The translations under genes were made by a program, and so were the position numbers. The notes below the pieces were generated by a model. That model did no database searches. It saw only the letters and a list, made by a program, of their open reading frames with translations, and had not been told where the DNA came from. This document shows positions 40,044 to 53,531 of a stretch of 64,000 nucleotides of DNA, piece after piece. The stretch comes from Escherichia coli (lineage in GTDB: Bacteria; Pseudomonadota; Gammaproteobacteria; Enterobacterales; Enterobacteriaceae), in NCBI RefSeq assembly GCF_003334385.1, contig NZ_QOWN01000019.1; one strand, 5' to 3'. Numbering within the stretch: position 1 is the stretch's first letter; each line of letters begins with the position of its first letter.

Positions 40044-40277
40044 TCGCTAAATAATACAGCAACCTTTAATAATCTTCTGCTGAATAAAGATTATCTCATA
40101 TATTAATTTTATGAGATTTTTTTAGGATTATATCAAGGAGAAGAAACAAACTTATTAAGCTAGAATAGCCACGGGTGCTTGAGACTGTTTGTCTCAGGTA
40201 TTCACCGAAAGGCAGACAGAGAAAAGCCCCACCTGACTATAAATCAAAGTTTGTACTGACCCCAAAAAGTTGGACAG

Positions 40278-41117
40278 TTAAACACGAGGCATATAGGTCT
40301 GATTCCGATATTCAATTGGAGTCAGACCTTTTAATTTCAGGCTAATTCTTCTGCTGTTGTAGTATTCAATATATTCCGTAACAGCATCCTTCAGTTCGCT
40401 TATATTACTGAACTCATCAAGATAAAAACACTCCGACTTTAAGGTTCCAAAGAAACACTCCACCACAGCATTATCCAGACAATTGCCTTTTCTGGACATG
40501 CTTTGTTTAATACCATGTTCTTTAAGGATATTTTGATATCTTCTCATACGATACTGCCATCCCTGGTCAGAGTGCAGAACAGGATGCTCGTGATTGAATG
40601 CCTGATCGAGCATATTCTCAACCATGTTCATCACTGGTCTTTCCGAAAGGCTGTAAGAAATAACTTCGTTGTTGAAGAGATCTATTACTGGAGACAAATA
40701 CAGCTTGCGCCCATTGACTGCAAATTCAGTAACATCGGTAACCCACTTCTCGTTTGGCCGCGTAGCCTTGAAATCTCTTTGGAGAACATTAGGGGCGGTT
40801 TGCCCTACCTCTCCTCTGTAAGAGCGGTATCGCTTGACCTTAATCGCTGCTTTAAGTGAGAGGGTTCCCATCAGGCGCTGAACAGCTTTATGGTTAATCT
40901 GTTTCCCTTCTCGATGAAGAGACAGCGTTACCCTACGGTATCCGTATCGGCCTCTATTCTCGTGATAAATCTCACTAATACGCTTTTTAACGTCCGCATA
41001 CTTGTCAGGCTTGCTGAGAGCCTTTAGATGATAATAAAACGTACTGCGCGGTATCTCCGCAGCCCTGAGAAGCTCATCAAGAGGATAAAACTGCCTTAGC
41101 TCGTTGAGTACTTTCAC
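40278..41117 (-). CDS. insK: IS150 transposase OrfB (DDE integrase domain); native start may lie a few codons upstream / be reached by -1 frameshift from OrfA
   Basis: Track ORF 279 aa; rve-type catalytic domain. Confidence 0.88.
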
Positions 41118-41714: not shown

Positions 41715-41867
41715 ATGCCGCAGAAATATAGATTACTTTCTTTAATAGTGATTTGTTTCACGCTTTTATTTTTCACCTGGATGATAAGAGATTCACTGTG
41801 TGAATTGCATATTAAACAGGAAAGTTATGAGCTGGCGGCGTTTTTAGCCTGCAAATTGAAAGAGTAA
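41715..41867 (+). CDS. hokA: Hok-family type I toxin (50 aa)
   Basis: MPQKYRLLSLIVICFTLLFFTWMIRDSLCELHIKQESYELAAFLACKLKE; SD AGGAGG 8 nt upstream; IS150 end lies 32 bp upstream of ATG. Confidence 0.85.
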   Translation: MPQKYRLLSLIVICFTLLFFTWMIRDSLCELHIKQESYELAAFLACKLKE

Positions 41868-42000
41868 GAGTCTTCGGCGGGAAATTATTCCCGCCTTACT
41901 TACGGCGTTGCGCATTCTCATTGCACCCAAATTTATTCTTCACAAAAATAATAATAGATTTTATTACGCGATCGATTATTTATTTCCTGAAAACAAATAA

Positions 42001-42030
42001 AAAAATCCCCGCCAAATGGCAGGGATCTTA
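42001..42030 (-). terminator. rho-independent terminator of cspA
   Basis: Minus-strand hairpin (atccctgcc/ggcggggat, one mismatch) followed by TTTTTT. Confidence 0.7.
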
Positions 42031-42053
42031 GATTCTGTGCTTTTAAGCAGAGA

Positions 42054-42266
42054 TTACAGGCTGGTTACGTTACCAGCTGCCGGGCCTTTAGCGCCGCTTT
42101 CGATGGTGAAGGACACTTTCTGACCTTCGTCCAGAGATTTGTAACCATCGTTCTGGATAGCAGAGAAGTGTACGAACACATCTTTAGAGCCATCGTCAGG
42201 AGTGATGAAGCCGAAGCCTTTGTCAGCGTTGAACCATTTTACGATACCAGTCATTTTACCGGACAT
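42054..42266 (-). CDS. cspA: major cold-shock protein CspA (70 aa)
   Basis: [21 protein letters not shown]... RNP1/RNP2 motifs. Confidence 0.97.
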
Positions 42267-42408
42267 AGTGTATTACCTTTAATAATTAAGTGTGCCTTTC
42301 GGCGATATGGCGTGCTTTACAGATTTTGAAGCGTTAAAGGAATGTGCACTACGAGGGGTATCAACGATAACTCTTGAAGGGACTTGCCTTACTACACTGC
42401 TTTAATGG

Positions 42409-42462
42409 TCTGTACGTCAAACCGTTGATGTGCATTAAGCCACGCATTGGCGGGTGATGCAA
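42409..42462 (-). promoter_or_regulatory. cspA promoter (-35 TTGCAT, 17-bp spacer, -10 CTTAAT) and cold-box at start of the long 5' UTR
   Basis: Minus-strand TTGCAT (42457-42462) and CTTAAT (42434-42439); cold box TGACGTACAGA (42409-42419); AT-rich UP-like region upstream. Confidence 0.8.
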
Positions 42463-42546
42463 CAATTATTTTTCATATTTATGATTAATCGGTTGGAAAA
42501 CGGTCCTGTCATCAGGACCGTAAACAGCAATAAAGTGGATAAAAGT

Positions 42547-42837
42547 CTATTCCATCAACTGCTTACTTAATGCCGGGTTGGCTTGAATCAAACGCATCAA
42601 TTTTAGTTCGGCACTTGAAGGCTTCACGCGTCTGGATTCCCATTCCTTTACCATGGCGACTGATACGCCCAAAACCCGGGCGAAATCATCGATTTTTAAT
42701 CCTGTCCCTTTTCGTAACTGCTCAATTTCGGTACAGGACGTTGTTCTGTGCGTCAGGGTAATTTTCTGCGTTTCATCTTTAAAAACAATCTGTTCCAGGC
42801 TGCTCAACAGCTCATGCATTGGATCTTTATATTCCAT
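42547..42837 (-). CDS. yiaG: XRE-family HTH protein (96 aa)
   Basis: Track ORF; C-terminal HTH_XRE (DFARVLGVSVAMVKEWE). Confidence 0.85.
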   Translation of the reverse strand: MEYKDPMHELLSSLEQIVFKDETQKITLTHRTTSCTEIEQLRKGTGLKIDDFARVLGVSVAMVKEWESRRVKPSSAELKLMRLIQANPALSKQLME

Positions 42838-51839: not shown

Positions 51840-53531
51840 ATGAGATACATCAAATCGATTACACAGCAGAAGCTGAGCTTTTTGCTTGCAATCTATATTG
51901 GCCTTTTTATGAATGGCGCGGTTTTTTACCGCCGCTTCGGCAGCTATGCGCACGATTTTACCGTCTGGAAAGGCATTTCTGCTGTTGTTGAACTGGCCGC
52001 CACCGTACTGGTGACCTTCTTTTTACTACGTCTTCTTTCGCTGTTTGGCCGCCGCAGCTGGCGTATTCTGGCATCGCTGGTGGTGCTCTTTTCCGCAGGT
52101 GCCAGCTATTACATGACCTTCCTTAATGTGGTCATTGGTTATGGCATCATCGCTTCCGTCATGACCACCGATATCGACCTGTCAAAAGAAGTTGTTGGTC
52201 TGAACTTTATTCTCTGGTTAATCGCCGTTAGTGCATTGCCTCTTATCCTTATCTGGAATAACCGCTGTCGCTACACCTTGCTCCGACAACTGCGAACCCC
52301 AGGGCAGCGTATTCGCAGCCTGGCGGTCGTCGTACTGGCGGGTATTATGGTTTGGGCACCGATTCGTTTGCTGGATATCCAGCAGAAGAAAGTGGAGAGG
52401 GCGACCGGCGTTGATTTGCCGAGTTATGGCGGTGTCGTAGCGAACTCTTATCTGCCATCAAACTGGCTTTCTGCGTTGGGGCTGTATGCCTGGGCGCGGG
52501 TCGATGAATCTTCCGATAATAATTCATTGCTTAATCCGGCGAAGAAATTCACTTATCAGGCACCGCAAAACGTTGATGACACTTATGTCGTGTTTATCAT
52601 CGGTGAAACCACGCGTTGGGACCATATGGGTATTTTCGGCTATGAGCGTAATACCACGCCGAAACTGGCCCAGGAGAAAAATCTGGCGGCGTTCCGTGGT
52701 TACTCCTGTGATACCGCAACCAAACTCTCACTGCGTTGCATGTTTGTACGTCAGGGGGGCGCGGAAGATAATCCGCAGCGCACATTAAAAGAACAGAACA
52801 TTTTCGCGGTTCTGAAGCAGTTAGGATTCAGTTCTGACCTCTACGCTATGCAGAGCGAAATGTGGTTCTACAGCAACACGATGGCGGACAACATTGCTTA
52901 TCGTGAGCAGATTGGTGCGGAGCCACGTAATCGTGGCAAGCCGGTAGATGATATGTTGCTGGTAGACGAAATGCAGCAATCGCTAGGGCGCAACCCGGAT
53001 GGTAAGCATCTGATCATTCTGCATACCAAAGGTTCGCATTTTAACTACACCCAGCGTTATCCGCGTAGCTTCGCGCAGTGGAAGCCGGAATGTATTGGTG
53101 TTGATAGCGGCTGTACCAAAGCGCAGATGATCAACTCCTATGACAACTCGGTGACCTATGTGGATCACTTTATCTCCAGCGTGATTGATCAGGTTCGCGA
53201 TAAGAAAGCGATTGTGTTCTACGCAGCTGACCACGGTGAGTCAATTAATGAACGCGAGCACCTGCACGGCACGCCGCGTGAACTGGCACCGCCGGAGCAG
53301 TTCCGCGTACCGATGATGGTCTGGATGTCAGATAAATATCTGGAAAATCCGGCCAATGCGCAGGCGTTTGCGCAGCTGAAAAAAGAAGCCGACATGAAAG
53401 TGCCACGCCGTCACGTAGAGCTGTACGATACCATCATGGGTTGTCTTGGCTATACTTCACCGGATGGTGGAATTAACGAAAACAACAACTGGTGTCACAT
53501 CCCGCAGGCAAAAGAGGCAGCGGCTAACTAA
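51840..53531 (+). CDS. eptB: Kdo2-lipid A phosphoethanolamine transferase (563 aa)
   Basis: Native start [14 protein letters not shown]; N-terminal TM domain plus sulfatase-like domain. Confidence 0.9.

Follow-up and report, generated by a model that had tools for sequence, protein, structure and literature searches.

The 280-nt gap between the stop codon of yiaG (ORF 42547..42837) and the gene downstream of it, on the minus strand of the analyzed DNA (a 64,000-nt stretch of an Escherichia coli contig, hereafter the window), almost certainly holds the native promoter and untranslated leader of cspA, the major cold-shock gene of E. coli, with RNA folds that would be chosen co-transcriptionally. 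The minus-strand sequence from 42000 to 42600 was found to be base-for-base that of E. coli K-12 MG1655, in which the matching gene is annotated as cspA (b3556). The ORF at 42054..42266 on this strand encodes the 70-aa CspA; its ATG at 42266 corresponds to K-12 coordinate 3,720,049, and the product scored 172.2 bits with the NCBIfam model NF007679 CspA (cutoff 130). The order of the neighboring genes, yiaG-cspA-ysaE/hokA-IS150-glyS, is that of K-12, and a 651-nt query around the locus matched 5423 of 5426 complete E. coli genomes. A search of Rfam identified a match to RF01766, ‘cspA thermoregulator’, at 41999..42426 on the minus strand, covering model positions 1–428 of 428 (500.8 bits, E = 1e-142; curated gathering threshold 78). 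This match takes in the whole cspA mRNA, that is, the leader together with the coding gene for a cspA-family cold-shock protein. No other RNA family in Rfam reached its threshold in the leader region, and no evidence against the cspA identification was found. The promoter and leader are an element already known, and nothing found here alters the existing picture. Among mRNA switches activated by cold, the cspA leader is the standard example, and cold-inducible expression vectors make wide use of it.

Many of the E. coli genomes in RefSeq that were annotated with PGAP give this exact cspA locus the label ‘cspE: transcription antiterminator/RNA stability regulator CspE’. The equivalog model for CspE, NF049933, also accepts CspA (124 bits, cutoff 120), and we infer that the mislabel probably arises from the precedence given to equivalog models in naming.

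Compared with K-12 MG1655, PcspA and the 5′ UTR have the same sequence, hexamers, TGn motif, UTR length and cold box as published, and the differences lie only outside the cspA element. The window is without the 12 nt GGATTAAGCTTT (window orientation; K-12 3,721,722..3,721,733) at 40593/40594. This deletion is in-frame inside insK of IS150 (ORF 40278..41117, minus strand) and results in a 279-aa ORF, by our own arithmetic four codons shorter than that of MG1655. The variant is rare: of the 3395 E. coli records that contain this IS150 segment, only 13 matched it at 99% or more; among the matches listed, SCU-104 matched it at 100%. Single-base differences were localized to 41822 (hokA, plus strand) and 45727 (yiaD), where the window has A and MG1655 has G (3,720,493 and 3,716,588, respectively); the window is therefore K-12-like and not MG1655 itself. 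The cspA terminator is closely followed, on the minus strand as well, by the small annotated ORF ysaE (24 codons including the stop, approximately 41844..41915, position mapped from MG1655), which overlaps the 3′ end of hokA in antisense. An Rfam ‘sok antitoxin’ match at 40173..40312 (plus strand) shares its strand with hokA and is separated from that gene by IS150, into whose end it apparently extends for about 60 nt; the sokA pseudogene of MG1655 is annotated on the opposite strand, at approximately 40216..40250. The match looks like a strand or extent oddity of the model, or of the match, at the IS150-disrupted hokA/sokA locus.

The promoter displayed the following features on the minus strand: (i) an AT-rich upstream (UP) region at 42463..42495, with an A+T content of 79–91% across 42495..42463 against 49% in the whole window, and with a proximal A-tract, GAAAAATAATTG, at 42474..42463; (ii) a −35 hexamer, TTGCAT, at 42462..42457; (iii) a 17-bp spacer whose final three bases are TGG, placing the TG of an extended −10 (TGgCTTAAT) at 42442..42441; and (iv) a −10 hexamer, CTTAAT, at 42439..42434. 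The arrangement TTGCAT-N17-CTTAAT occurs once in the window, against 0.02 occurrences expected from shuffles. Both hexamers are those published for PcspA, of which the −10 is described as non-consensus at positions −12 and −11 in PMC2613000, which quotes Tanabe 1992 and Phadtare and Severinov 2005. The original prediction had read the same hexamers and spacer on this strand together with an AT-rich upstream element, and all of these are present, the last as evidenced by its A+T content. It had overlooked the TGn motif, which PMC2613000, where it cites Phadtare and Severinov 2005, gives as required for cspA transcription. The AT-rich UP element is likewise reported to be required, to judge by the title of Mitta 1997 as it appears in PMC6386945.

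A generic sigma-70 scan did not call this promoter because the hexamers are weak (3/6 and 4/6, giving 7/12) and the −10 is without A at its second position. The missed call is a limit of the generic scan and no evidence against the promoter. Since the hexamers are weak, activity would depend on the UP and TGn elements, which is also the published view. With hexamers 17 bp apart, a TG one base before the −10 and an A+T-rich tract adjoining the −35, the promoter is, judged by its sequence features, one of the sigma-70 −35/TGn (extended −10) class with a UP element. On its far side, the AT-rich region is abutted by a GC-rich 9-bp hairpin, ACGGTCCTG-ATGA-CAGGACCGT followed by TTT (42521..42500, minus strand; predicted −15.5 kcal/mol), which starts 25 nt past the yiaG stop. 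It is probably the yiaG terminator, and our terminator scan missed it because the T-run is short.

Transcription from this promoter is placed at A42425 or A42426 (42425..42426, minus strand) by the published lengths of the cspA 5′ UTR, 159 nt (PMC6719143) and 160 nt (PMC6386945), and by the RF01766 match, which begins at 42426. Counted from the ATG at 42266, A42425 gives a 159-nt leader and A42426 a 160-nt leader; the two positions correspond to K-12 3,719,890 and 3,719,889, respectively. Read from the sequence, A42426 and A42425 are the 8th and 9th nucleotides after the −10 hexamer. A literature search for a published genome coordinate of the cspA start site gave no relevant match. The earlier expectation of a cspA ORF behind a leader of about 160 nt, starting near 42425, agrees with the published lengths, and the MG1655 identity and RF01766 bear out the ORF and its leader as well. 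Comparison with the published cspA leader, which had been proposed as a check, gave agreement in the hexamers, the UTR length and the T7 and primer sequences; the cspA mRNA primers of PMC2948425 match 42423..42407 and, for the reverse primer, 42024..42002 exactly. At the other end of the transcript, the terminator scan identified an intrinsic terminator at 42002..42029 (minus strand), which coincides with the end of the RF01766 match and marks the 3′ end of the 428-nt mRNA. A transcript length of 428 nt is given in the literature.

The cspA 5′ untranslated leader (42267..42426, minus strand; 159/160 nt), delimited from the sequence, RF01766 and folding, begins at 42426 with AACGGTTTGACGTACAGACC. 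A long leader of this kind, with a cold box close to its 5′ start, is described in PMC6719143. The cold box, TGACGTACAGA, lies at 42419..42409, positions +8 to +18, and is the exact copy that the original prediction had placed near the 5′ end. It is held within a 5′ hairpin at 42407..42423, GGUUUG-ACGUA-CAGACC, which has a 6-bp stem in both the 37 °C fold and the Rfam consensus. Further down, UCUGUA at 42318..42323 is the long-range partner of the cold-box UACAGA in the open fold predicted by folding and RNAalifold, and GCCGAAAGGCACA at 42291..42303 forms a small GCC-GAAA-GGC hairpin in both predicted folds. The latter is called the ‘upstream box’; the name and a proposed role as a translation enhancer reportedly go back to Yamanaka in 1999. 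The Shine-Dalgarno (SD) core AAGG is at 42276..42279. The UCUGUA element, the GCCGAAAGGC box and the SD are leader elements additional to those named in the original prediction, which had also left out the part that the coding region takes in the folds. The later parts of the coding sequence (42054..42266) join the leader folds, as does the ‘downstream box’ ATGACTGGTATCGT at 42254..42241, within the first cspA codons (PMC6386945), and the Rfam consensus pairs UTR nucleotides 26–72 with coding nucleotides. The predicted extent, 42267–42470, therefore needs correction at both ends, although the elements are at or next to the places given for them: the lower bound omits the coding nucleotides of the regulatory RNA folds, the Rfam match running over 41999..42426, and the upper bound cuts the A-tract, the AT-rich region reaching approximately 42495. 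Other ORFs in the leader region, namely a 34-aa frame from TTG 42465, which is upstream of the start site, and antisense frames at 42168..42329 and 42292..42405, are unsupported.

The exact cold box is present in a single copy in the window, where by our own arithmetic approximately 0.03 exact matches to an 11-mer would be expected by chance in 128 kb. Matches with up to two mismatches were not enriched in shuffle comparisons (15 found against 10.7 expected); therefore, only the exact copy in its context is meaningful. A one-mismatch copy, TGACGCACAGA, was observed at 42745..42755 (minus strand) inside yiaG, 326 nt upstream on the same strand, and a second one-mismatch match at 52743..52753. 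About one is expected by chance in the window, and the yiaG copy is consistent with chance.

Within E. coli, a 234-nt segment containing the promoter and leader showed an identity of at least 99% in 5402 of the 5423 genomes, with no difference at all in most of the matches listed. A collection of species-representative genomes was scanned with a DNA pattern, resulting in 56 loci. Among these, 33 distinct sequences were orthologues of cspA, from Escherichia, Citrobacter, Salmonella, Klebsiella, Kluyvera, Enterobacter, Buttiauxella, Superficieibacter and Intestinirhabdus, and the alignment used here (A2) contained 34 sequences. The orthologue loci scored 334–436 bits with RF01766. Among the 34 sequences, mean identity to the window base was 0.44 upstream of the A-tract, where there is no conservation, and 0.72 in the A-tract itself, the sole part of the UP region conserved across genera, with AAAATAA nearly invariant. 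Identity was 0.91 for the −35 hexamer (TTG invariant, C nearly invariant), 1.00 for the TG of the extended −10 against 0.47 for the whole spacer, and 0.86 for the −10 hexamer (TTAAT invariant). In the leader, the cold box had an identity of 0.96, with GGTTTG and most of the remainder invariant or nearly so, and UCUGUA had an identity of 1.00, with TCTGT invariant; the SD region AAAGGTAAT was also invariant. The search pattern contained the GCCGAAAGGC box and the first codons, so that their invariance in alignment A2 is built in.

The gap between the −10 and GGTTTG (alignment A2 columns 82–90; window 42433..42427) varied by 1–3 nt, being longest in E. coli and shortest in Klebsiella, and species probably differ in how many unpaired nucleotides precede the cold-box hairpin at the 5′ end. 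Three loci had a csp frame that was broken or frameshifted after 12–28 codons behind a normal leader: L037 (Citrobacter koseri NCTC10786), L041 (Enterobacter sp. kpr-6) and L046 (Escherichia sp. MOD1-EC7003). These could be assembly errors or pseudogenized copies.

The K-12 paralogues cspB, cspG and cspI share with cspA the A-tract, a TTGC −35, a TGnNTTAAT extended −10 and a long UTR (145–160 nt). The GGTTTGA..ACAGAC cold box and TCTGT are shared by cspB and cspG, as is the GCCGAAAGGC box, in place of which cspI has GCCCAAGGGC. In contrast to these shared features, the middle of the paralogue leaders is divergent from that of cspA, the cold-box loop bases differ (TGAAGAACAGA, TGAAAGACAGA) and the box-to-ATG spacing is 6–8 nt shorter; the alignment lacks the part of the cspI cold box that follows GGTTTG. 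Loci of the cspB/cspG type in other genera reached RF01766 at 122–200 bits.

At 37 °C, ViennaRNA predicts a fold in which a 5′ hairpin of 6 bp encloses the cold box and the SD and AUG are buried in long helices, with a probability of 0.02 for the SD to be unpaired; the Rfam consensus structure has the same features. For a 187-nt RNA at 10 °C, the minimum free energy fold pairs UACAGA with UCUGUA approximately 90 nt downstream, and at 10–15 °C the SD is partly open (P(unpaired) 0.32). In the same RNA, the local hairpin had a predicted probability of 0.95 at 37 °C, and that of the long-range pairing was 0.85–0.89 at or below 15 °C. Such temperature dependence of the predicted fold was a property of RNAs of 163–187 nt. 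In RNAs of 120–150 nt, the long-range pairing was predicted to be dominant at every temperature (P approximately 0.9), and in RNAs of at least 200 nt the equilibrium prediction had no long-range pairing and kept the AUG paired at every temperature. The SD was buried from 220 nt onward and partly open at 200 nt at or below 25 °C (0.26–0.31). The local cold-box hairpin was dominant at most lengths of at least 200 nt; at 247 nt it was replaced by other pairings at or below 25 °C. Equilibrium folding of the full-length RNA from 37 to 10 °C gave no structure switch and an SD accessibility near zero. Folding at 10 and 37 °C, which the original prediction had put forward as a check, thus yielded a switch in the 163–187-nt RNA but none in the full-length RNA at equilibrium. 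For the full-length RNA, the basis of the switch is published probing together with a kinetic argument. The predicted pattern of length and temperature fits a kinetically chosen co-transcriptional switch and agrees with the published model (PMC9947658; PMC9411577; PMC4496569).

Both folds were also compared with the orthologues. The 5′ hairpin was paired in 99% of cells, both of its arms being almost invariant. The two folds, which were derived from the window sequence itself, were compatible with the orthologues, with 91.5% and 87.6% of cells paired, against 35–47% with slid partners. Covariation was negligible: double changes occurred in two to four pairs, about as many as in the shuffled and slid controls; it is uninformative here because the paired arms hardly vary. 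An RNAalifold consensus of the orthologues, which is independent of the window sequence, recovered the long-range cold-box pairing as well as two small hairpins, GCC-GAAA-GGC and one within the first codons, and contained no compensatory pairs. The comparative data are evidence of strong constraint but no proof of either fold, and covariation neither supports nor refutes them.

Taken with published work, these data are consistent with the following mechanism, for which the start site, the UP and TGn requirements, the two probed structures, the change in stability and the CspA feedback come from the literature; sequence identity, element positions, Rfam membership, conservation and fold compatibility with orthologues come from the present analysis. 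A sigma-70 promoter composed of the UP region, TTGCAT, a 17-bp spacer ending in TGn and a weak CTTAAT would drive transcription from A42425/A42426, and two folds could be adopted by the resulting leader jointly with the first part of the coding region. The closed fold would have the local 6-bp cold-box hairpin at the 5′ end and the SD and AUG in long helices; in the open fold, UACAGA would pair with UCUGUA about 90 nt downstream, leaving the SD more exposed. The cold box has been reported to lie within a stem-loop of 6 bp at 37 °C and to pair with a distant downstream sequence at 10 °C (PMC9411577). The choice between the folds would be made as the RNA leaves the polymerase. In the cold, the long-range pairing formed early would persist and the mRNA would be well translated, and at 37 °C the closed fold would take over and the mRNA would also be rapidly degraded. 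It has been reported that transcription at low temperature gives the open, translatable form and that transcripts synthesized at 37 °C remain in the closed form on cold shock (PMC9947658). CspA protein, which binds the cold box on the RNA of its own leader (PMC4496569), is reported to feed back on that leader later. Leader-dependent cold induction of CspA has been reported for exactly this sequence (PMC6386945; PMC9947658; bioRxiv 10.1101/289264).

The description of the region as a textbook RNA thermosensor context is supported, RF01766 matching at full length, but the behavior is not one of simple melting; a choice between two folds would be made during transcription, a point that the original prediction did not contain. 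ROSE and fourU elements, like cspA, couple access to the SD to temperature through mRNA structure, and the SD and AUG of cspA are indeed paired in the predicted 37 °C fold. It is nevertheless highly improbable that the leader is an equilibrium ‘zipper’ thermometer of this kind, in which one SD hairpin reversibly opens and closes. Zipper thermometers open on warming, whereas cspA has the opposite polarity, being open and expressed in the cold; and ROSE and fourU consist of one melting hairpin, whereas cspA would rearrange between two exclusive folds with long-range partners about 90 nt apart, chosen during transcription. The predicted SD accessibility of the full-length RNA, which at equilibrium stays near zero between 37 and 10 °C, also argues against a reversible opening, as does the report that cspA RNA made at 37 °C keeps its closed form after cold shock (PMC9947658). 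No Rfam match to the ROSE or fourU families was obtained in the cspA region. A DNA-level role for the cold box, as the operator of a repressor protein and not as an RNA element, might be suggested by its near invariance and by its location at +8 to +18, a common operator position. We regard this as extremely improbable, since the distant UCUGUA is conserved along with the two arms of the hairpin in the RNA, the cold box has no operator-type dyad symmetry beyond the RNA stem, and the reported binding of CspA to it is on RNA (PMC4496569).

A rather different question is whether the leader acts mainly as a determinant of mRNA stability, giving fast decay at 37 °C and a stable message in the cold, with translational sensing being secondary. 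The far longer half-life reported for cspA mRNA at low temperature (PMC9411577; bioRxiv 10.1101/289264) favors this reading, which is compatible with the switch, so that only dominance is at issue. We consider it rather unlikely, given that the major RNase E site of cspA is in the 3′ UTR and not in the leader (PMC2948425) and that in vitro translation with purified components revealed an effect of structure independent of decay (PMC9947658).

A terminator-like hairpin, a well-characterized promoter and a well-characterized regulatory leader account for the whole of the 280-nt interval that separates yiaG from cspA. From the transcript-length window in which, in silico, temperature decides the fold, we tentatively propose a refinement that may well prove wrong: the temperature decision would be taken only within a short co-transcriptional window, the long-range fold being the default that is displaced at 37 °C as nucleotides 160–190 emerge. 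This idea extends a published one and is not a new kind of element. If it is true, CspA output would depend less on the final thermodynamics than on how fast the polymerase moves, whether it pauses or when the first ribosome arrives in that window, and the near invariance of both 6-nt partners across genera would reflect their kinetic role.
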